DNA of 10,585 nucleotides. It comes from a virus (taxonomy: Duplodnaviria; Heunggongvirae; Uroviricota; Caudoviricetes). The stretch lies in the IMG/VR virus record IMGVR_UViG_2541047825_000014; one strand, written 5' to 3'. The position numbers and the translations under genes are program-made. This document shows, piece by piece, positions 1-10,209 of the stretch; the stretch's first letter is position 1, and every line of letters begins with the position of its first letter. The notes below the pieces were generated by a model. That model worked only from the letters and a program-made list of their open reading frames with translations. It ran no database searches and was not told the DNA's origin.

Positions 1-648
1 ATGGCAGCGACGCACACACTCCCTCTGGCGTCACCGGGCATGGCACGCATCTGCCTTTACGGGGATTTACAACGATTTGGCCGCCGCATCGACCTTCGTG
101 TGAAAACGGGGGCTGAAGCCATCCGGGCGCTGGCCACGCAGCTTCCGTCGTTTCGCCAGAAACTGAATGAGGGCTGGTATCAGGTGCGCATTGCCGGGCG
201 TGATGCAGGCGAAAATGAATTATCTGCCCGTCTTAATGAGCCGCTGGAAAATGGTGCCGTGATTCACATCGTGCCGCGTATGGCGGGAGCTAAAAGTGGC
301 GGTGTGTTTCAGGTGGTGCTGGGGGCGGCGCTGATTGCGGTGGCATGGTGGAACCCTGTGGGCTGGCTGGGTGCTGCGGCTGTATCGGGCATGTATGCGG
401 CAGGGGCCAGTATGATTCTGGGTGGTGTGGCCCAGATGCTGGCACCGAAAGCCAGGACGCCCACGGCAGCCAGTACAGATAACGGCAAACAGAACACCTA
501 TTTCTCCTCACTGGATAACATGGTTGCTCAGGGCAATGTTCTGCCTGTTCTGTACGGTGAAATGCGTGTGGGGTCGCGGGTGGTTTCTCAGGAGATCAGC
601 ACGGCAGACGAAGGTGACGGTGGTCAGGTTGTGGTGATTGGTCGCTGA
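1..648 (+). CDS. I: Phage tail assembly protein I (lambda gpI family)
   Basis: 215-aa ORF starting MAATHTLPLASPGMARICLYGDLQRFGRRIDLRVKTGAEAIRALATQLP and ending GGQVVVIGR, recognised as the lambda gpI family. It sits immediately upstream of J, as in lambda. The ATG is at the window edge, so upstream context is not visible. Confidence 0.85.
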   Translation: MAATHTLPLASPGMARICLYGDLQRFGRRIDLRVKTGAEAIRALATQLPSFRQKLNEGWYQVRIAGRDAGENELSARLNEPLENGAVIHIVPRMAGAKSGGVFQVVLGAALIAVAWWNPVGWLGAAAVSGMYAAGASMILGGVAQMLAPKARTPTAASTDNGKQNTYFSSLDNMVAQGNVLPVLYGEMRVGSRVVSQEISTADEGDGGQVVVIGR

Positions 649-666
649 TGCAAAATGTTTTATGTG

Positions 667-688
667 AAACCGCCTGCGGGCGGTTTTG
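667..688 (+). terminator. Short GC hairpin with T-tract between I and J (possible attenuator or weak terminator)
   Basis: AAACCGCC-TGCG-GGCGGTTTT: the arms at 667-674 and 679-686 are reverse complements, followed by T's. The J ribosome-binding site GGAG lies at 697-700. Confidence 0.3.
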
Positions 689-708
689 TCGTTTATGGAG
701 CATGACGA

Positions 709-3700
709 ATGGGTAAAGGCAGCAGTAAGGGGCATACCCCGCGCGAAGCGAAGGACAACCTGAAGTCCACGCAGTTGCTGAGTGTGATCGATGCCATCAG
801 CGAAGGGCCGGTTGAAGGTCCGGTGGATGGGTTAAAAAGCGTGCTGCTGAACAGTACGCCGGTGCTGGACAGTGAGGGGAATACCAATATATCCGGCGTC
901 ACGGTGGTGTTCCGGGCAGGTGAGCAGGAGCAGACTCCGCCGGAGGGGTTTGAATCCTCCGGTTCCGAGACGGTGCTGGGTACGGAAGTGAAATATGACA
1001 CGCCGATCACCCGCACCATCACGTCGGCAAACATCGACCGTCTGCGCTTTACCTTCGGTGTGCAGGCACTGGTGGAAACCACCTCAAAGGGGGACAGGAA
1101 TCCATCGGAAGTCCGCCTGCTGGTTCAGATACAGCGTAACGGTGGCTGGGTGACGGAAAAAGACATCACCATTAAGGGCAAAACCACCTCGCAGTATCTG
1201 GCCTCGGTGGTGGTGGATAACCTGCCGCCGCGCCCGTTTAATATCCGGATGCGCAGGATGACGCCGGACAGCACCACAGACCAGCTGCAGAACAAAACGC
1301 TCTGGTCGTCATACACCGAAATCATCGATGTGAAACAGTGCTACCCGAACACGGCACTGGTTGGCGTGCAGGTGGACTCGGAGCAGTTCGGCAGCCAGCA
1401 GGTGAGCCGTAATTATCATCTTCGCGGGCGCATTCTGCAGGTGCCGTCGAACTATAACCCGCAGACGCGGCAATACAGCGGTATCTGGGACGGAACGTTA
1501 AAACCGGCATACAGCAACAACATGGCCTGGTGTCTGTGGGATATGCTGACCCATCCGCGCTACGGCATGGGGAAACGTCTTGGTGCGGCGGATGTGGATA
1601 AATGGGCGCTGTATGTCATCGGCCAGAATTGCGACCAGTCGGTGCCGGACGGCTTTGGCGGCACGGAGCCGCGCATCACCTGTAACGCTTACCTGACCAC
1701 ACAGCGCAAGGCGTGGGATGTGCTCAGTGATTTCTGCTCGGCGATGCGCTGTATGCCGGTATGGAACGGGCAGACGCTGACGTTCGTGCAGGACCGACCA
1801 TCAGATAAGGTGTGGACCTATAACCGCAGTAATGTGGTGATGCCGGATGATGGCGCGCCGTTCCGCTACAGTTTCAGCGCCCTGAAGGACCGCCATAATG
1901 CCGTTGAGGTGAACTGGACTGACCCGGATAACGGCTGGGAAACGGCAACAGAGCTTGTGGAGGACACGCAGACCATTGCCCGTTACGGTCGTAACGTCAC
2001 GAAGATGGATGCCTTTGGCTGTACCAGCCGGGGGCAGGCACACAGAGCCGGGCTGTGGCTGATTAAAACGGAGCTGCTGGAAACGCAGACCGTGGATTTC
2101 AGCGTGGGCGCAGAAGGGCTTCGCCATGTACCGGGCGATGTCATTGAAATCTGCGATGATGACTATGCGGGTATCAGCACCGGTGGTCGTGTGCTGGCGG
2201 TGAACAGCCAGACCCGGACGCTGACGCTCGACCGTGAAATCACGCTGCCATCCTCCGGTACCACGCTGATAAGCCTGGTTGACGGAAATGGCAATCCGGT
2301 CAGCGTGGAGGTTCAGTCCGTCACCGACGGCGTGAAGGTAAAAGTGAGCCGTGTTCCTGACGGTGTTGCTGAATACAGCGTATGGGGGCTGAAGCTGCCG
2401 ACGCTGCGCCAGCGCCTGTTCCGCTGTGTGAGTATCCGTGAGAACGACGACGGCACGTATGCCATCACTGCCGTGCAGCATGTACCGGAGAAAGAAGCCA
2501 TCGTGGATAACGGGGCGCACTTTGACGGTGACCAGAGCGGCACGGTGAATGGTGTCACGCCGCCAGCGGTGCAGCACCTGACTGCCGAAGTCACCGCAGA
2601 CAGCGGGGAGTATCAGGTACTGGCCCGCTGGGACACGCCGAAGGTGGTGAAGGGCGTGAGCTTCCTGCTTCGCCTGACCGTGGCAGCGGACGACGGCAGT
2701 GAGCGGCTGGTCAGCACAGCCAGGACGACGGAAACCACATACCGCTTCAGGCAACTGGCGCTGGGGCGTTACACGCTGACGGTCCGGGCGGTAAATGCGT
2801 GGGGACAGCAGGGCGATCCGGCATCGGTATCGTTCCGGATTGCCGCACCGGCAGTGCCGTCGAGGATTGAGCTGACGCCGGGCTATTTTCAGATAACTGC
2901 CACGCCGCATCTTGCGGTTTATGATCCGACGGTACAGTTTGATTTCTGGTTCTCGGAAACGCGGATTACCGATATCAGGCAGGTTGAAACCACAGCCCGC
3001 TATCTTGGCACGGCGCTGTACTGGATAGCCGCCAGTATCAATATCAAACCGGGCCATGATTATTATTTTTACATCCGCAGTGTGAACACCGTTGGCAAAT
3101 CGGCATTTGTGGAGGCTGTTGGCCAGCCGAGTGATGATGCATCCGGCTATCTGGATTTTTTCAAAGGAGAGATAGGGAAAAGCCATCTGGCTCAGGAGCT
3201 GTGGACGCAGATTGATAACGGTCAGCTTGCGCCTGACCTGGCTGAAATCAGGACGTCCATTACGGATGTCAGCAATGAAATCACGCAGACCGTCAATAAG
3301 AAACTGGAAGACCAGAGTGCGGCAATTCAGCAGATACAGAAGGTTCAGGTTGATACAAATAATAACCTGAACAGCATGTGGGCTGTGAAGCTGCAGCAGA
3401 TGCAGGACGGACGCCTTTATATCGCGGGTATTGGTGCCGGTATTGAGAACACCCCTGACGGCATGCAGAGTCAGGTGCTGCTGGCGGCGGACAGGATTGC
3501 GATGGTTAATCCTGCGAATGGCAACACAAAGCCGATGTTTGTTGGTCAGGGCGATCAGATATTCATGAACGAAGTGTTCCTGAAATATCTGACGGCTCCC
3601 ACCATTACCAGCGGCGGTAATCCTCCGGCATTTTCCCTGACACCGGACGGGCGGCTGACGGCAAAAAATGCCGATATCAGCGGTAACGTGAATGCGAACT

Positions 3701-4188
3701 CCGGGACGCTCAACAACGTCACGATTAACGAGAATTGCCGGGTTCTGGGAAAACTGTCCGCGAACCAGATTGAAGGCGATCTCGTTAAAACAGTGGGCAA
3801 AGCTTTCCCCCGTGACTCCCGTGCACCGGAACGGTGGCCATCAGGGACCATTACCGTCAGGGTTTATGACGATCAGCCGTTTGACCGGCAAATTGTTATT
3901 CCAGCGGTGGCTTTCAGCGGTGCCAGACATGAACGGGAGAATAGCGATACTTATTCGTCATGCCGCCTGATAGTGAAGAAAAACGGGGCTGAAATTTATA
4001 ACCGAACGGCTCTGGATAATACTCTGATTTACACGGGTGTTATTGATATGCCTGCAGGCAGTGGCGTAATGACACTGGAGTTTTCGGTATCAGCATGGTG
4101 GGTAAATGGCTGGTATCCCACAGCAAGTATCAGCGATTTGCTGGTTGTGGTGATGAAGAAAGCCACCGCAGGCATCAGTATCAGCTGA
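709..4188 (+). CDS. J: Tail tip / host specificity protein J (central tail fiber), with a divergent C-terminal receptor-binding region
   Basis: 1159-aa ORF starting [34 protein letters not shown], recognised as lambda gpJ over most of its length. GGAG at 697-700 precedes the ATG at 709. The last ~330 aa (from about nt 3180) are AT-richer and do not look like the lambda LamB-binding C-terminus as I recall it. Confidence 0.95.
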
Positions 4189-4206
4189 ATTTTATAACCC
4201 CAATAC

Positions 4207-4233
4207 GGGCGTCAGAAATGACGCCTTTTTTAT
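4207..4233 (+). terminator. Rho-independent terminator downstream of J
   Basis: GGCGTCA (4208-4214), loop GAAA, TGACGCC (4219-4225), followed by TTTTTT (4226-4231). Confidence 0.7.
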
Positions 4234-4255
4234 TGCAGAAAAGCGAGAGGTAATT

Positions 4256-4855
4256 ATGCGTAAATTATGTGCTGTTATTCTGTCCGCAGTAGTCTGGCTG
4301 GTTGCCGCTGGTACGCCAGCGAGCGCAGCAGAGCATCAGTCCACACTAAGCGCCGGGTATCTTCAGACCCATACTGATATGCCAGGCAGTGATGACCTGA
4401 AGGGCATTAACGTGAAATACCGTTATGAATTTACGGACACGCTGGGGCTGGTGACGTCATTCAGTTATGCCAATGCCAAAGATGAGCAAAAAACGCATTA
4501 CAGCGATACCCGCTGGCATGAAGATTCAGTGCGTAACCGCTGGTTCAGCGTGATGGCGGGGCCGTCTGTACGCGTGAATGAATGGTTCAGTGCTTATGCG
4601 ATGGCGGGTGTGGCTTACAGCCGTGTTTCGACGTTCTCCGGGGATTATCTCCGCGTAACTGACAACAAGGGGAAAACGCACGATGTGCTGACCGGAAGTG
4701 ATGACGGTCGCCACAGCGACACGTCTCTGGCATGGGGGGCTGGCGTGCAGTTTAACCCGACCGAATCCGTGGCCATTGATATTGCTTATGAAGGTTCCGG
4801 CAGTGGCGACTGGCGCACTGACGGTTTCATCGTTGGTGTCGGTTATAAATTCTGA
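4256..4855 (+). CDS. lom: Lom outer membrane protein (Ail/Lom/OmpX/PagC beta-barrel family); lysogenic-conversion moron
   Basis: 199-aa ORF with a signal peptide (MRKLCAVILSAVVWLVAAGTPASA) and a C-terminal GFIVGVGYKF beta-barrel terminus, recognised as lambda Lom. Ribosome-binding site GAGAGG at 4243-4248. Flanked by terminators on both sides. Confidence 0.95.
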   Translation: MRKLCAVILSAVVWLVAAGTPASAAEHQSTLSAGYLQTHTDMPGSDDLKGINVKYRYEFTDTLGLVTSFSYANAKDEQKTHYSDTRWHEDSVRNRWFSVMAGPSVRVNEWFSAYAMAGVAYSRVSTFSGDYLRVTDNKGKTHDVLTGSDDGRHSDTSLAWGAGVQFNPTESVAIDIAYEGSGSGDWRTDGFIVGVGYKF

Positions 4856-4881
4856 TTAGCCAGGTAACACAGTGTTATGAC

Positions 4882-4909
4882 AGCCCGCCGGTTCAGGCGG
4901 GCTTTTTTG
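4882..4909 (+). terminator. Rho-independent terminator downstream of lom
   Basis: AGCCCGCC (4882-4889), loop GGTTCA, GGCGGGCT (4896-4903), followed by TTTTTT (4903-4908). Confidence 0.7.
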
Positions 4910-4919
4910 TGGAGTGGAT

Positions 4920-6983
4920 ATGGCAGCAGTAAAAATCTCAGGTGTGCTGAAAGATGGTGCGGGAAAACCAATACAGAACTGCACTATTCAACTGAAGGCA
5001 AAGCGTAACAGCACCACGGTACTGGTCAACACAGTGGCCTCTGAAAATCCGGATGAAGCCGGGCGTTACAGCATGGATGTTGAGTATGGACAGTACAGCG
5101 TCACCCTGCTGGTTGAAGGTTTTCCGCCTTCACATGCCGGGACCATTACCGTCTATGAAGGTTCCAGACCAGGTACGCTGAATGATTTTCTCGGTGCCAT
5201 GACGGAAGATGATGTCATGCCGGAGGCATTGCGTCGTTTTGAGGAAATGGTGGAAGAAGCGGCACGCAACGCTGAAGCCGCCTCTCAGAGCGCAGCGGCA
5301 GCAAAGAAATCAGAAACAGCAGCGGCATCGTCCAGGAATGCGGCGAAAACATCAGAGACGAATGCAGGTAACAGCGCGAAAGCGGCAGCTTCTTCAAAAA
5401 CAGCCGCACAAAACGCAGCAACAGCGGCAGAACGTTCAGAGACAAATGCCCGTGCGTCAGAAGAAGCCTCCGCAGACAGTGAAGAGGCTTCCCGCCGTAA
5501 TGCAGAGTCAGCCGCTGAAAATGCCGGAGTCGCCACCACAAAAGCGCGGGAGGCCGCAGCAGACGCAACAAAGGCCGGGCAGAAAAAGGATGAGGCTCTG
5601 TCGGCAGCGACACGGGCTGAAAAGGCGGCAGACCGCGCAGAAGTCGCAGCGGAAGTGACTGCAGAGCCCTATGCGAATATAGTGCCGCCGCTGCCTGATG
5701 TGTGGATACCGTTTAACGATTCACTGGATATGATTGCGGGTTTTTCTCCGGGCTATAAAAAAATAGCTATTGGTGACGATGTGGTTCAGGTCGCCAGTGA
5801 TAAACAGGTTAATTTCAGTCGCGCATCAACGGCAACATATATCAACAAATCTGGCGAACTGAAAACGGCGGAAATTAATGAGCCGCGATTTGAGTGTGAT
5901 GGCCTGCTTATTGAGGGACAAAGAACGAACTACATGCTCAATTCGGAAAGTCCAGCCAGCTGGGGGAAGTCATCAAACATGGATGTGCCCGAAACCGGGA
6001 CGGATAGTTTTGGTTTTACTTATGGAAAGTTTGTCTGCAACGATTCTCTGGTTGGGCAAACTTCGGCTATTAATATGGCATCAATTGCTGCAACAAAGTC
6101 AGTTGATGTCTCAGGCGATAACAAGTACGTGACAACCTCATGCCGTTTTAAAACAGAACGACAGGTAAGGTTACGTATACGGTTTGATAAGTATGATGGT
6201 AGTGCAACAACTTTTCTTGGCGATGCGTACATTGATACGCAAACGCTTGAAATTAATATGACAGGTGGTGCTGCCGGCAGAATTACGGCACGAGTCAGGA
6301 AGGATAAGACCACAGGCTGGATTTTTGCAGAGGCAACGATTCAGGCAATTGATGGTGAGTTAAAAATAGGCTCTCAGATACAGTATTCTCCTGAGCAGGG
6401 TGGGGCAACAGTATCTGGTGACTATATTTATCTTGCCACCCCACAAGTAGAGAATGGGCCGTGTGTATCATCATTTATTATTTCAGGAGGCAGCGCAACG
6501 ACAAGAGCCAGTGATTTGGTTAGTATCCCCACCAGAAATAATCTTTATAAGTTACCATTTACTTTTTTACTTGAGATTCATAAAAACTGGGATATTGCAC
6601 CAAACGCCGCACCCCGCGTGTGGGATATAGCAGCAGCCAATACCGGGCAATCAGCAATTGCAGCAATCAACAGAGGTAGTGGTAAGTTATATATGAGTCT
6701 GTCAAACCCTTCAGGCTCGTATGTTAATAGCGCAGCGACAGATGTATTTGCAGAGAAAACCACATTTGGATGTATTGCAAAAGCTGATGGTCACTTTCAT
6801 GTGGTGACAAATGGTAAAGCGGTTAATGAAGTTTATTGTGAATATAATGGCGTGACCGCTGATAAAAATATCCGATTTGGAGGGCAGACGAATACTGGAG
6901 AACGACATCTGTTTGGCCATATTCGCAATTTCCGCATATGGCATAAAGAATTAAATGACAGGCAATTAAAAGAGGTCGTATGA
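4920..6983 (+). CDS. stf: Side tail fiber protein (Stf-like), mosaic: conserved N-terminal tail-attachment region, Ala-rich repetitive shaft, divergent AT-rich C-terminal putative receptor-binding domain
   Basis: ORF track gives 4914-6983 with a GTG start. I prefer the ATG at 4920 (product MAAVKISGVLKDG..., matching the lambda Stf N-terminus) with GGAG at 4911-4914. No tfa-like gene follows. Confidence 0.85.
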   Translation: MAAVKISGVLKDGAGKPIQNCTIQLKAKRNSTTVLVNTVASENPDEAGRYSMDVEYGQYSVTLLVEGFPPSHAGTITVYEGSRPGTLNDFLGAMTEDDVMPEALRRFEEMVEEAARNAEAASQSAAAAKKSETAAASSRNAAKTSETNAGNSAKAAASSKTAAQNAATAAERSETNARASEEASADSEEASRRNAESAAENAGVATTKAREAAADATKAGQKKDEALSAATRAEKAADRAEVAAEVTAEPYANIVPPLPDVWIPFNDSLDMIAGFSPGYKKIAIGDDVVQVASDKQVNFSRASTATYINKSGELKTAEINEPRFECDGLLIEGQRTNYMLNSESPASWGKSSNMDVPETGTDSFGFTYGKFVCNDSLVGQTSAINMASIAATKSVDVSGDNKYVTTSCRFKTERQVRLRIRFDKYDGSATTFLGDAYIDTQTLEINMTGGAAGRITARVRKDKTTGWIFAEATIQAIDGELKIGSQIQYSPEQGGATVSGDYIYLATPQVENGPCVSSFIISGGSATTRASDLVSIPTRNNLYKLPFTFLLEIHKNWDIAPNAAPRVWDIAAANTGQSAIAAINRGSGKLYMSLSNPSGSYVNSAATDVFAEKTTFGCIAKADGHFHVVTNGKAVNEVYCEYNGVTADKNIRFGGQTNTGERHLFGHIRNFRIWHKELNDRQLKEVV
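5260..5650 (+). repeat. Low-complexity Ala/Ser/Glu-rich degenerate repeats encoding the fiber shaft of Stf
   Basis: Translation contains repeated A-A-K/S-x-S-E-T-N/A-A motifs (AAKKSETAAASSRNAAKTSETNAGNSAKAAASSKTAAQNAATAAERSETNARASEEAS...). The GC-rich GCN-codon runs generate spurious overlapping ORFs on both strands. Confidence 0.6.
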
Positions 6984-7258
6984 AAGATTTAACTTTGAAG
7001 TTTCATGACAAACTGCAGTTTAAGGCCTTCCTGTCATCTCTTGGCTGGGCGGAAGATGAAGACCTCCAGAATAAACTGTTAGTTGATGAAATTGGTTTCA
7101 CCTACACAGAAACAGGGGTAACAGAAGAGGGAGAACCTGTCTGTATCCGGAATGATGGTTATTTTGTCAACATTCGCATTCTTGATGACTTGTTTGATGT
7201 TTCTGTATTCTCTGATTATGTCGTGGAGCTGGAAACACCGCTTCGGGAATGGAGCTGA
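6980..7258 (+). CDS. Hypothetical acidic 92-aa protein, translationally coupled to stf
   Basis: The ATG at 6980 overlaps the stf stop (ATGA at 6980-6983). AGAGG at 6971-6975. No signal peptide or TM segment. No family recognised. Confidence 0.55.
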   Translation: MKDLTLKFHDKLQFKAFLSSLGWAEDEDLQNKLLVDEIGFTYTETGVTEEGEPVCIRNDGYFVNIRILDDLFDVSVFSDYVVELETPLREWS

Positions 7259-7270
7259 AAGGAGGAAATA

Positions 7271-7558
7271 ATGGATATAAGCCCCTTACTTCATGCACTT
7301 TGTGCTGTGGCTGCGCAGATACTGGTTGGTCTTTTTACCGGAAACTGGGCTTACGGAGCGATAGCCGGTTGTACGTTCTTCATTGCGCGTGAACATACCC
7401 AGGCAGAATATCGCTGGATTGAAATGTTCGGGCATGGCAAGCGAATGAATATGCCGTGGTGGGGCGGTTTTGATCCGCGTGCTTGGGATGTGGCAAGCCT
7501 GATGGATTTTGCTGTGCCGGTGGTGGCGTGTCTGCTGATCTGGATGTTGATCCGTTAA
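7271..7558 (+). CDS. Hypothetical small membrane protein (95 aa, two predicted TM helices)
   Basis: Strong ribosome-binding site GGAGGA at 7261-7266, 5 nt before the ATG. Hydrophobic N-terminal segment (LLHALCAVAAQILVGLFTG...AIAGCTFFIA) and C-terminal segment (FAVPVVACLLIWMLI), with a Trp-rich loop (NMPWWGGFDPRAWD). No family recognised. Confidence 0.6.
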   Translation: MDISPLLHALCAVAAQILVGLFTGNWAYGAIAGCTFFIAREHTQAEYRWIEMFGHGKRMNMPWWGGFDPRAWDVASLMDFAVPVVACLLIWMLIR

Positions 7559-7573
7559 ATATAAAAAGTAAAA

Positions 7574-7609
7574 AGCCGCAGTAACTTGTCATGATAGGAT
7601 ACTGCGGCT
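7574..7609 (-). terminator. Hairpin likely terminating the minus-strand dinI-like transcript (possibly bidirectional)
   Basis: AGCCGCAGTA (7574-7583) and TACTGCGGCT (7600-7609) are reverse complements with a 16-nt loop. On the minus strand the hairpin is followed by TTTTTACTTTTTAT (complement of 7561-7573). There is no T-run on the + strand. Confidence 0.45.
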
Positions 7610-7675
7610 GGCTGGTTAACTTTCGATAGTGCGAGTATTGAATGATTTCCAGCCGTTACTGATTTTACGTGCTAA

Positions 7676-7924
7676 TTAGTGAACAAACCACTCATCAGCA
7701 GACTCCCAGGTATCTTTCAGAGTTTCCTGAACAAAAGTTTTAGCTGAATCTTTATCGGCGGTGCGCGTAACAGAAAGGCCATCGTTGCTGGTGGCTTTTA
7801 CGATCACCTCTACATCGTCATAACGTTTACTGATGCGTCGGGTTAATTCTTCCTTTAACGCATCCACAGCACCGTTTGGCATTTTAGTCATTTTTTCTTT
7901 GGCTATGCAGATCTCAATACGCAT
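7676..7924 (-). CDS. DinI-family DNA-damage-inducible protein (prophage-encoded DinI-like)
   Basis: 82-aa [38 protein letters not shown]...[11 protein letters not shown] with the characteristic DinI N-terminus and acidic C-terminal TWESAD(D/E)WF motif. GAGGGA ribosome-binding site upstream. Confidence 0.9.
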
Positions 7925-7937
7925 AAAAGTCCCTCTA

Positions 7938-7989
7938 TACTGTGTTTGTATACAGTGTTATTTTTAACTGTATGGATAAACAGTGTCAA
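7938..7989 (-). promoter_or_regulatory. SOS-regulated sigma70 promoter of the dinI-like gene with two tandem LexA boxes
   Basis: Two CTGT-N8-ACAG motifs: box 1 TACTGTGTTTGTATACAGTG (7938-7957) and box 2 AACTGTATGGATAAACAGTG (7966-7985). On the minus strand a perfect -35 TTGACA (complement of 7984-7989) abuts box 2, and a -10-like TAAAAA lies 17 nt downstream (complement of 7961-7966). The -35 overlaps the integrase stop codon. Confidence 0.7.
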
Positions 7990-9083
7990 GAGGTCTTATT
8001 TCTGCTCCTTTGGAGCTCTTCAAAACGATTATGTAAAGATTTCGGATACAGTTCGGTATATACCTGCCATAGCACGTTTAATGAACGATGCCCTGTAACC
8101 TGAGCGACTTCCTCAATACTAAAACCAGCCTCAAATAAGCGACTTGCCCCTTCTCTACGCAAATCATGGTATCGCAGATCTTTAATACCTAATTTGCTTC
8201 TTACCCTCTGAAATCCTGCAGTAACAGAAGTGCTGTTATATGGAAAAATGAATTCCGATTTTTTGGGCTGTCGTTGGACGATATCCCAGGCTTCCCCAAG
8301 CAAGGCTACTTTCATGTGGTTGCCTTCCTTTTTGCGTGGATCTTTCCTGTCTCTTACGAGTATAGATTTTTGTTCCTGGTCGAGATCTTCCCATCGTAAC
8401 CGGCATACTTCTCCGATCCGCATACAGGACCACACAGAAAATTTGAGGATATCAACGAACGGAATTTTTGAGCATTTATGAGTAGATCGTTGTTGAAGGC
8501 CTTCAATGAGCATGTCCAGTTCATCAGATGCTGGTCTACGATTACGACGGTTTGATTTACCAATCAAACCAAGTTTAAGTAGATATGGGCGAGCGCTTTT
8601 CGCCGGGTTTGATGTGTAATTAATTCCGTATACAGGTTTGGCCGCATCCAGAACACTGCCAAGATAACTAACATCGTGGCTGACTGTTGCTGGACCTGCA
8701 CCAGCGTTGTTTCTTAGCCTGCAATGTTCAATTACGTCATTTTCTGTCAGTTCAGATAGTTTGATCGCGGAGATGTCACTATCCATAAGCAGTTCCAGCA
8801 CATATCTTTTAGTACGGCCTGCTTTACCTCCGGCATTTGGGTCATTTAAATATTTGTGTAGTAAGTCACGGACTGTAAGTCCGTCAACTGCATTTGATGA
8901 TGGAATGCCATATAGATCTAATTCCATCACTTTCTGTGTTCCCCATGTTTTGGCATGAGCATGTTTAGGGAATGTTTTGCTTTCCCTGTAAGTGATAACA
9001 CCTTTTTCTTTGATAATCACATTACAGCGATAGCGTGGTGTGCCATCGGATTTTAGTCGTTTCTCTATGTTATAGTACGCCAT
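7986..9083 (-). CDS. int: Phage integrase, tyrosine site-specific recombinase family
   Basis: 365-aa ORF. The C-terminal catalytic region carries R...HxxR...Y hallmarks (RYHDLRREGASRLFEAG...VTGHRSLNVLWQVYTEL). It diverges from dusA with an 88-bp intergenic spacer. Confidence 0.93.
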   Translation of the reverse strand: MAYYNIEKRLKSDGTPRYRCNVIIKEKGVITYRESKTFPKHAHAKTWGTQKVMELDLYGIPSSNAVDGLTVRDLLHKYLNDPNAGGKAGRTKRYVLELLMDSDISAIKLSELTENDVIEHCRLRNNAGAGPATVSHDVSYLGSVLDAAKPVYGINYTSNPAKSARPYLLKLGLIGKSNRRNRRPASDELDMLIEGLQQRSTHKCSKIPFVDILKFSVWSCMRIGEVCRLRWEDLDQEQKSILVRDRKDPRKKEGNHMKVALLGEAWDIVQRQPKKSEFIFPYNSTSVTAGFQRVRSKLGIKDLRYHDLRREGASRLFEAGFSIEEVAQVTGHRSLNVLWQVYTELYPKSLHNRFEELQRSRNKTS

Positions 9084-9101
9084 TACACGACCTCGTTATT
9101 T

Positions 9102-9139
9102 CGGGTTCCCATAAAACGTGGGAACCTGTGCGGGAACCT
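9102..9139. repeat. Three copies of a GGGAACC/GGGTTCCC heptamer (one inverted, two direct) in the int-dusA intergenic region; candidate integrase or regulator binding sites or att-associated repeats
   Basis: cGGGTTCCCataaaacgtGGGAACCtgtgcGGGAACCtaacg read directly from the sequence. Confidence 0.4.
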
Positions 9140-9171
9140 AACGCGAGAAAAATAGCCTGAAATGTTCAAAA

Positions 9172-10209
9172 ATGCACGATAATCATGAAACACAAAAAAT
9201 TAATCAAACCAGCGTGATGCCTGAAAAAACTGGTGTTTACTGGAATTCTCGGTTTAGCATTGCTCCTATGCTTGACTGGACGGACAGACATTGCCGTTAT
9301 TTCTTGCGTCTGCTTTCCCGCAATACGTTGTTGTATACCGAAATGGTGACCACAGGGGCGATTATTCACGGTAAAGGTGATTACCTGGCGTACAGTGAAG
9401 AAGAACATCCGGTAGCGTTGCAACTCGGGGGTAGCGATCCGGCGGCGCTGGCACAGTGTGCGAAGCTGGCAGAAGCGCGTGGATATGATGAGATCAACCT
9501 GAATGTCGGCTGCCCGTCTGACCGGGTGCAGAACGGCATGTTTGGTGCGTGTCTGATGGGTAATGCGCAGCTGGTTGCCGACTGCGTGAAAGCGATGCGC
9601 GATGTGGTGTCGATTCCGGTGACGGTGAAAACGCGTATTGGCATCGATGATCAGGACAGCTATGAATTTCTCTGCGATTTCATCAACACCGTTTCCGGCA
9701 AAGGTGAGTGTGAGATGTTCATCATCCACGCACGTAAAGCCTGGCTTTCTGGGTTAAGTCCGAAAGAAAACCGTGAGATCCCGCCTCTCGATTATCCGCG
9801 TGTGTATCAACTGAAGCGTGACTTTCCGCATCTGACGATGTCGATTAACGGTGGTATCAAGTCGCTGGAAGAAGCTAAAGCGCATTTGCAACATATGGAT
9901 GGCGTGATGGTCGGGCGCGAGGCGTATCAGAATCCGGGTATTCTGGCGGCGGTAGACCGAGAGATTTTTGGTTCCTCGGATACCGATGCCGATCCGGTGG
10001 CGGTAGTGCGCGCCATGTATCCGTACATTGAGCGTGAACTCAGCCAGGGTACGTATCTCGGCCATATTACCCGGCATATGCTGGGCTTGTTCCAGGGTAT
10101 TCCTGGCGCGCGGCAGTGGCGGCGTTATTTAAGTGAAAATGCCCATAAAGCGGGTGCAGACATTAATGTGCTGGAACACGCGCTCAAACTGGTGGCGGAT
10201 AAGCGTTAA
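9172..10209 (+). CDS. dusA: tRNA-dihydrouridine synthase A (DusA)
   Basis: 345-aa ORF with a Dus-family TIM-barrel signature ([17 protein letters not shown]...NLNVGCPS...). The exact start is uncertain: the ATG at 9172 has no clear ribosome-binding site, and an in-frame alternative lies at 9217. The first ~150 nt are notably AT-rich compared with the rest of the gene. Confidence 0.9.

Follow-up and report, generated by a model that had tools for sequence, protein, structure and literature searches.

A mobile fibre-tip cassette with an overlapping partner gene, and a separate small membrane-protein gene, in the right arm of a lambdoid prophage

Phages are well known to exchange fibre-tip modules. 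In phage lambda, the side tail fibre gene stf is followed by tfa, which encodes a small cytoplasmic partner protein. Here we analyse the corresponding position in a stretch of 10,585 nucleotides (nt) of Caudoviricetes DNA (IMG/VR virus record IMGVR_UViG_2541047825_000014; the whole stretch is hereafter called the window), where a 689-amino-acid (aa) stf open reading frame (ORF; nt 4914-6983, plus strand) is followed on the same strand by two small ORFs, orf92 (6980-7258) and orf95 (7271-7558). The window agrees with lambda in genomic position, in the PF08400 anchor family of the fibre, and in placing the gene of a small cytoplasmic partner after the fibre gene; however, the distal fibre domain and the partner are both unrelated to those of lambda.

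The nearest described counterpart is phage 21 (OL657228), whose genes 22-24 (CPT_21_22/23/24) share 97.5% DNA identity with stf, orf92 and orf95 and repeat the gene order, overlap and spacer of the window; mEp460, ev017, Perceval and PhiR63_2 also carry these genes. The phage 21 proteins are labelled as a side tail fibre, described as similar to lambda Stf orf-401, a hypothetical protein, and a putative membrane protein with two transmembrane domains. Unlike the window, phage 21 has no lom gene between J and stf, and it carries the sitABCD iron/manganese transporter operon right after its orf95 homologue (L001, 6731-10180), where the window has dinI, int and dusA. Among the BASEL phages, KarlJaspers (Bas06, gp37/gp36) and IrisVonRoten (Bas32, Gp22/Gp23) likewise encode the distal fibre module followed by an overlapping orf92 homologue, but they differ in having other N-terminal anchors, a virulent lifestyle, no orf95, and more fibre, chaperone or sugar-binding genes 3' of orf92. 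Rcc01080 (GhsB), of family NF048003, from the gene transfer agent (GTA) RcGTA, is similar in sequence to Stf residues 300-546; in contrast to a tail fibre, it sits on capsid vertices as a single subunit, attached through an N-terminal Leu-Gly repeat (PMC7296036). It has no known orf92-like partner, and its structure resolves residues 2-10 only, so that it offers no structural template for the binding domain.

For orf95, the closest parallels are conversion or exclusion genes placed beside receptor-binding genes, such as T5 Llp and Cor, or gp21/gp22 of epsilon15. Like the epsilon15 pair, orf95 directly follows a fibre or tailspike gene in many temperate phages; it differs from such genes in lying on the same strand as the fibre gene, with no promoter of its own found. 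Neither a strict pairing of this fibre module with orf92 nor orf95 itself was found described in the searchable literature, and searches on phage 21 side tail fibres, the protein accessions and the ECOR phages yielded nothing on either small protein. Papers on the Eligo Stf chimeras, on DT57C LtfA/LtfB and on the Gifsy-1 Stf were considered and set aside, as this cassette is not involved in them.

Here we report that the AT-rich part of the locus ends before orf95. We propose, with a probability of about 0.6, that the block comprises two evolutionary units: a mobile fibre-tip/orf92 cassette, with the roles suggested below, and a separately acquired orf95. Module boundaries, gene linkage, domain homologies and distribution are observations; glycan binding, a physical contact between orf92 and the fibre, and any function of orf95 are inferred from homology, synteny and distribution. 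Of 5426 complete E. coli genomes, 1909 have matches to all or parts of the block, at a median of 3 places per genome. The cassette is ordinary in kind, having a curated family name and a published model of a homologue, while orf92 and orf95 are uncharacterised but widespread. Current understanding is not overturned by these findings, which provide a tidy lead rather than a surprise. Their relevance lies partly in the fact that this type of fibre-tip module is one of the main determinants of coliphage host range, and that such modules are now transplanted onto lambda particles to make delivery vectors.

A probable receptor-binding cassette at nt 5679-7258

The original prediction, made from the sequence alone, described an AT-rich foreign cassette that begins near nt 5700 and continues through both small ORFs. 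Its start is confirmed by the base composition, with GC content falling from 0.559 over nt 1-5678 to 0.433 over nt 5679-7258 (z = -10.1), a cumulative-GC change point at 5711, and a local value of 0.267 at 6541-6600. Within stf, the proximal part (4914-5678) has a GC content of 0.550, and the distal part (5679-6983) 0.435, with a GC content at third codon positions (GC3) of 0.366. The predicted extent holds as far as the end of orf92 and fails for orf95, whose GC content of 0.517 and GC3 of 0.521 are indistinguishable from those of the upstream phage DNA (z = -1.4). Because the composition of orf95 matches the rest of the phage arm, we place the end of the AT-rich block at 7258.

An Ala/Glu/Lys/Ser-rich repetitive stalk is encoded at 5250-5700 (Stf residues ~115-255), with an AT skew of 0.5 and a local GC content of 0.61, and the apparent drop at 5700 is sharpened because this GC-rich stretch lies just upstream. 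The exaggerated contrast could be taken to mean that the shift is noise or an effect of amino-acid composition, with no foreign module at all. That reading is refuted, and we give it virtually no weight, since the deviation of z = -10 is measured against the whole upstream 5.7 kb, GC3 itself falls to 0.366, and the boundary is also the point at which homology to unrelated phages begins. The compositional boundary coincides with a protein module boundary at Stf residue 256 (IVPPLPDVWIP, nt 5679), and it is at this residue that similarity to fibres with unrelated N-termini starts. (Stf residues are numbered from the 689-aa ORF starting at 4914; the RefSeq start is the ATG at 4920.) The enterobacterial copies of the distal module plus orf92 that were examined are AT-rich as well, with a GC content of 0.35-0.46 (0.38-0.46 for the module alone); the two most distant copies, L096 (0.49) and L099 (0.57), are not AT-rich.

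The proximal part of Stf (residues 1-255), comprising a lambda-type anchor and the stalk, lies outside the cassette and matches PF08400 (phage_tail_N) over residues 5-134 with an expectation value (E) of 5.8e-67. The AT-rich, mobile distal module (residues 256-689) belongs to phrog_1419, tail protein, and aligns over its full length, PLPDVWIP to C-terminus, with fibres that are unrelated to the Stf of the window in their proximal parts. These include a fibre of 704 aa whose gene lies between those for capsid and tail tube in another type of E. coli prophage (L004, 54%), a fibre that follows a gpJ-like gene (L096, 28%), a 1711-aa metagenomic fibre (L099, 32%), and the lateral tail fibres of the virulent phages KarlJaspers (T1-like, 57%) and IrisVonRoten (T5-like, 52%). 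The locus had been predicted to hold a horizontally exchanged module where lambda has the distal part of Stf and tfa, and for 5679-7258 the prediction is supported.

Two domains can be recognised in the distal module. The first is a GTA head-spike-fibre-like domain at 5907-6509 (residues 332-532), which matches NCBIfam NF048003 ('phage head spike fiber') with E 8.7e-15 and 55.7 bits, above the cut-off of 36. A phmmer comparison with Rcc01080 (PDB 6TB9 chain sequence) gives E 6.3e-10 over residues 300-546, and RefSeq labels near-identical proteins 'phage head spike fiber domain-containing protein'. The second, at 6600-6965 (residues 563-684), is a candidate concanavalin A/galectin-like lectin domain matching Pfam Laminin_G_3 with E 2.7e-5. 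Its score of 24.8 bits falls just below the cut-off of 27.6, which counts against the assignment; in the related fibre L133 the equivalent domain is above the cut-off (39.2 bits), and the C-terminal domain of the homologous Bas32 Gp22, with a 52% identical module, is predicted to be galectin-like (PMC11990801). Searches of residues 256-689 against Pfam, NCBIfam and PDB returned only NF048003, Laminin_G_3 and Rcc01080; domains of the lambda Stf or T4 gp37 type were absent, lambda Stf itself not having been directly aligned. Together with the lack of a Tfa/Caudo_TAP match for orf92, this agrees with the expectation that the locus is something other than an ordinary Stf-Tfa pair. The further expectation of a novel C-terminal domain proved wrong, given the 97.5% DNA identity to phage 21, mEp460 and ev017, the match to NF048003, and the same module in BASEL fibres.

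Capsule polysaccharide is bound by the RcGTA head fibre (PMC7296036), and O-antigen is regarded as the target of lateral fibres in these siphophage groups (PMC8594841). By analogy, the tip of Stf most likely binds a surface glycan. On the proposed mechanism, a lambda-type anchor and stalk would have been fused at residue 256 to a module in which a GTA-head-spike-fibre-like domain precedes a putative lectin domain, and this module would bind surface polysaccharide (O-antigen or capsule) in a reversible first step of adsorption.

Sequence variation in the module is concentrated in two stretches, separated by a conserved frame. Hypervariable cassette 1 (5958-6422, residues ~349-503) is only 16-45% identical to other alleles, as against 58-96% for its flanking frames, and is a likely specificity determinant. 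Hypervariable cassette 2 (6609-6887, residues ~566-658) shows 12-35% identity to most lambdoid alleles and 82% (76/93) to the virulent T1-like phage KarlJaspers. The two swap independently, as in L009, which has cassette 1 in common with the window and cassette 2 not. Both cassettes likely mark where specificity is encoded, and independent exchange of the two would then set the receptor range of the fibre.

orf92, a probable partner of the fibre tip

The stop codon of stf and the start codon of orf92 share the sequence ATGA at 6980-6983, exactly as had been claimed. orf92 (6980-7258, plus strand), directly after the distal module, encodes an acidic cytoplasmic protein of 92 aa and 10.7 kDa, with an isoelectric point of 4.2 and no hydrophobic segment. 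It belongs to PHROG 1361 (function unknown; E 3.2e-42, residues 1-91 of 92) and has no Pfam or NCBIfam family at E<=0.1.

The association of orf92 with this type of fibre tip is strict. In all 107 orf92 loci, from lambdoid, T1-like, T5-like and other phages, the gene is joined to the stop of the upstream gene by (A/G)TGA, and in 101 of them the distal module abutting it is detectable by tblastn. Elsewhere the module before orf92 was shown by BLASTP (L096-L098), was seen at motif level only (QLE..SSYIP..TRA plus the terminal strand; L101-L102), or has detectable homology that stops ~300 nt upstream of orf92 (L110). At least five unrelated proximal contexts precede the pair: lambdoid Stf, the fibre encoded between capsid and tail-tube genes, the fibre after a gpJ-like gene, and the lateral fibres of T1-like and T5-like phages. 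A wider tblastn search found orf92 in 147 phage records, mostly of virulent siphophages, where it always adjoins an annotated tail fibre gene and is almost always labelled hypothetical. Its occurrence in both virulent and temperate phages points to a role in the virion or in its assembly. Since orf92 keeps an identity of 90-99% where that of the fibre's hypervariable parts falls to 43%, it tracks the conserved frame and not the specificity loops.

Profile searches brought few relatives to light. Among 1.8 billion representatives, only 78 hits to orf92 were obtained, ~30 of them full-length remote relatives sharing the motifs MKD..LKF, D.IG, GY.VN.R and a C-terminal P.R.WA; giant TPR/PKD proteins also appeared, as spurious repeat matches and not as domain fusions. 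Profile searches of PDB sequences with orf92 and orf95 gave nothing or chance hits, a Tetrahymena p19 match among the latter. A single-sequence AlphaFold2 model of orf92 (pLDDT 60) was discarded, and a model built from a 35-sequence alignment reached a pLDDT of 93.5, with a conserved but poorly ordered C-terminal P-x-R-x-W tail. No fibre chaperone was found in a fold search with orf92.

From the sequence comparisons, orf92 is most likely an obligate, co-translated partner of this fibre tip, unrelated to Tfa and acting as an assembly chaperone or tip subunit. The ATGA overlap would keep its translation in step with that of the fibre, and the protein may bind the conserved framework of the module, perhaps through the P-x-R-x-W tail. 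As a chaperone or as a subunit retained at the tip, it would fill the role that Tfa has for lambda Stf, with no kinship between the two. If orf92 is needed for the module to fold or function, transplanting the module without it would fail.

A different possibility is suggested by what follows orf92 in some phages, namely that the protein is a docking adaptor attaching a second, short fibre to the first to give a branched fibre, and is not a chaperone. Where orf92 is of the ~54%-identity type (L003-L007, L109-L111 and IrisVonRoten), a Peptidase_S74 short fibre gene comes right after it in every locus, as it does in the more distant L096-L098, and for IrisVonRoten a published prediction has the T-shaped fibre Gp24 attached to Gp22, the proximal fibre and carrier of the module (PMC11990801). 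However, 60 of the 63 lambdoid loci, including the window, have no second fibre gene, and orf92 is still intact, conserved and overlapping the fibre stop in them, and in KarlJaspers orf92 is followed by other genes. Because the 60 lambdoid loci lack a second fibre, docking cannot be the general role of orf92, and we consider this explanation unlikely beside that of a chaperone or tip subunit.

Two variant arrangements of the locus may be mentioned. In Lambda_4C10 (L002, 5926-8590), and also in 4A7, 1W, 3W and L027, three consecutive 'Mobile element protein' genes, apparently an insertion sequence, break up stf within its last ~45 codons; the two small genes downstream are still intact. In Escherichia ruysiae and relatives (L109-L111), stf is followed by orf92 of the 54% type, a short fibre of 234-346 aa and then orf95, combining lambdoid and non-lambdoid features; by eye, the C-terminus of this short fibre resembles a Peptidase_S74 chaperone domain.

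orf95, a separable small membrane-protein gene

orf95 (7271-7558, plus strand) encodes a small membrane protein in which residues 5-39 and 75-95 form hydrophobic segments. It is separated from orf92 by a 12-nt intergenic spacer, AAGGAGGAAATA (7259-7270), that holds its Shine-Dalgarno sequence (AAGGAGG), so that the predicted 12-nt gap with a strong ribosome-binding site is indeed present. The protein belongs to phrog_1443 (PHROG 1443, function unknown; E 1.7e-57), with a conserved core, REHTQAEYRWI / MPWWGGFD, and 26 invariant columns across 24 diverse members. Between the hydrophobic stretches lies a near-invariant loop, AREHTQAEYRWI..FG.GKR.NMPWWGGFD. The 568 homologues found are distributed among alpha-, beta- and gamma-proteobacteria and Desulfovibrio, and the loop hardly varies among Escherichia, Comamonas, Aeromonas, Sphingomonas and Desulfovibrio.

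It had been suggested that the distal fibre domain and both small ORFs form a single three-part unit that might always travel together. This is true of the distal module and orf92, and it does not extend to orf95, whose family is much wider and often unlinked to fibres. A functional system of all three genes, joining receptor recognition to a chaperone or exclusion activity, would suit the fact that they are contiguous, on one strand and tightly spaced, and that the 12-nt distance from orf92 to orf95 recurs unchanged in 60 of 63 lambdoid loci. In the other three, however, an S74 fibre gene lies between orf92 and orf95, and orf95 is missing from 13 of the 76 orf92 loci that extend far enough, all 13 of them non-lambdoid and virulent phages among them. 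Its GC content of 0.517 also departs from the 0.42-0.43 in the rest of the block, and its homologues occur without orf92, either after unrelated fibres or tailspikes or alone in chromosomes. A single three-gene system is accordingly an improbable account of the locus.

Still less credible is a reading of orf92 and orf95 as cargo behind the tail genes, forming an anti-phage defence or toxin-antitoxin pair. Their location would suit such cargo, but PADLOC gave zero hits at E<=1 for both small proteins and for the distal part of Stf, many virulent phages have orf92 and no orf95, and the two genes differ in distribution and composition.

Two units, with orf95 acquired separately, remain our preferred reading. 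orf95 is found in bacterial chromosomes and temperate phages across Pseudomonadota. Among phage genomes, full-length copies are essentially limited to temperate phages, and in those of sipho-, myo- and podo-type alike orf95 comes directly after a fibre, tailspike or fibre-assembly gene; outside the orf92 loci the gene just before it may be gpJ-like, may encode a LamG fibre, a beta-helix tailspike or a DUF4376 fibre-assembly protein, or may be a fibre-assembly gene of the P2 type. This position and distribution hint at an autonomous, lysogeny-associated envelope protein that serves in conversion or exclusion, which is our best guess; the exclusion or chaperone system originally envisaged for the block is likewise a reasonable guess, though an unsupported one. 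As we picture it, orf95 would be transcribed where the late operon ends, and its product, a small inner-membrane protein of a kind that is typical for temperate phages, would act on the host envelope through lysogenic conversion or superinfection exclusion.

Several observations weigh against this picture. Partial copies of the orf95 core occur in a few large virulent phages, and lone chromosomal orf95 genes lie among housekeeping genes in Aeromonas, Leclercia and Silvania. No sigma-70-like promoter site was found upstream of orf95, so that any expression in a lysogen is putative. Moreover, the receptor-binding proteins encoded next to orf95 are very different and its loop stays invariant, with no co-variation between the two, an argument against orf95 as a blocker of the cognate receptor.

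A more far-reaching interpretation, which we offer only tentatively and hold to be doubtful as a whole, has two independent parts. orf92 may represent an undescribed class of obligate fibre partner, unrelated to Tfa and acting as a chaperone or retained tip subunit for the GTA-spike/lectin module in lambdoid, T1-like, T5-like, Queuovirinae-like and other phages. orf95, in turn, may be a new, widely conserved inner-membrane effector of temperate phages, its invariant loop targeting a conserved envelope machine to bring about exclusion or surface-glycan conversion. orf95 is compact, extremely conserved, completely unstudied and carried by many prophages of E. coli; should it change the envelope or prevent superinfection, it would influence how susceptible a large part of natural E. 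coli is to phages.

Some individual homologues of orf95 show the range of its settings. Judging by ORF sizes, the homologues in Aeromonas spp. (L014, L115, L117, L118 and L122) apparently occupy one chromosomal site; the gene calls of L014 place Pirin upstream, a RIO1-kinase downstream and lipid A acyltransferase genes nearby, which suggests a domesticated or an ancestral cellular copy. In the P2-like temperate myophage phiHAP-1 of Halomonas (L163, 4001-4306), a homologue with 40% identity is located within the structural operon, not at a genome end, and overlaps the stop of the gene for tail fibre assembly. In the Uetakevirus phiv142-3, an epsilon15-like podophage, the homologue Orf5 (L160, 2148-2447) lies between the tail fibre gene and a gp23-like gene. 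The same slot in epsilon15 (L161, 9272-10663) holds seroconversion genes, encoding an O-antigen polymerase and a polymerase-inhibitor; epsilon15 gp22 has no sequence similarity to orf95. The published phenotype of an orf6 (tail fibre) knockout in phiv142-3 concerns the gene immediately upstream of Orf5.

Prophage setting of the locus

The window covers the right arm of a lambdoid prophage whose insertion site is dusA. A prophage of E. coli O2:H6 PG20180057 shares 99.7% identity with the window; there, the RefSeq label of stf is 'prophage tail fiber N-terminal domain-containing protein', and orf92 and orf95 are listed as hypothetical. The first gene is the C-terminal part of gpI, followed by J (709-4188) and by lom (4256-4855), which lies between J and stf. 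Terminator-like hairpins with T-runs flank lom at 4207-4226 and 4882-4903, a classic moron layout. Downstream of orf95, and convergent with it, is a dinI-like gene (7676-7924, minus strand), then a tyrosine integrase gene (7986-9083, minus strand) that adjoins dusA; dusA and then pspG come after the integrase in the window, the prophage being integrated at the 5' end of dusA (region 7986-10209).

Between the convergent orf95 and dinI genes there is a stable hairpin with a 10-bp stem (7574-7609; folding free energy -21.5 kcal/mol on the plus strand and -17.4 kcal/mol on the minus strand, z ~ -4.2). Its U-run is present only on the minus strand, so that the hairpin terminates dinI and not the late operon, which has no obvious intrinsic terminator after orf95; the hairpin nevertheless marks the 3' limit of that operon. 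At ~7599-7679, RefSeq calls a tiny 'capsid protein' pseudogene fragment.

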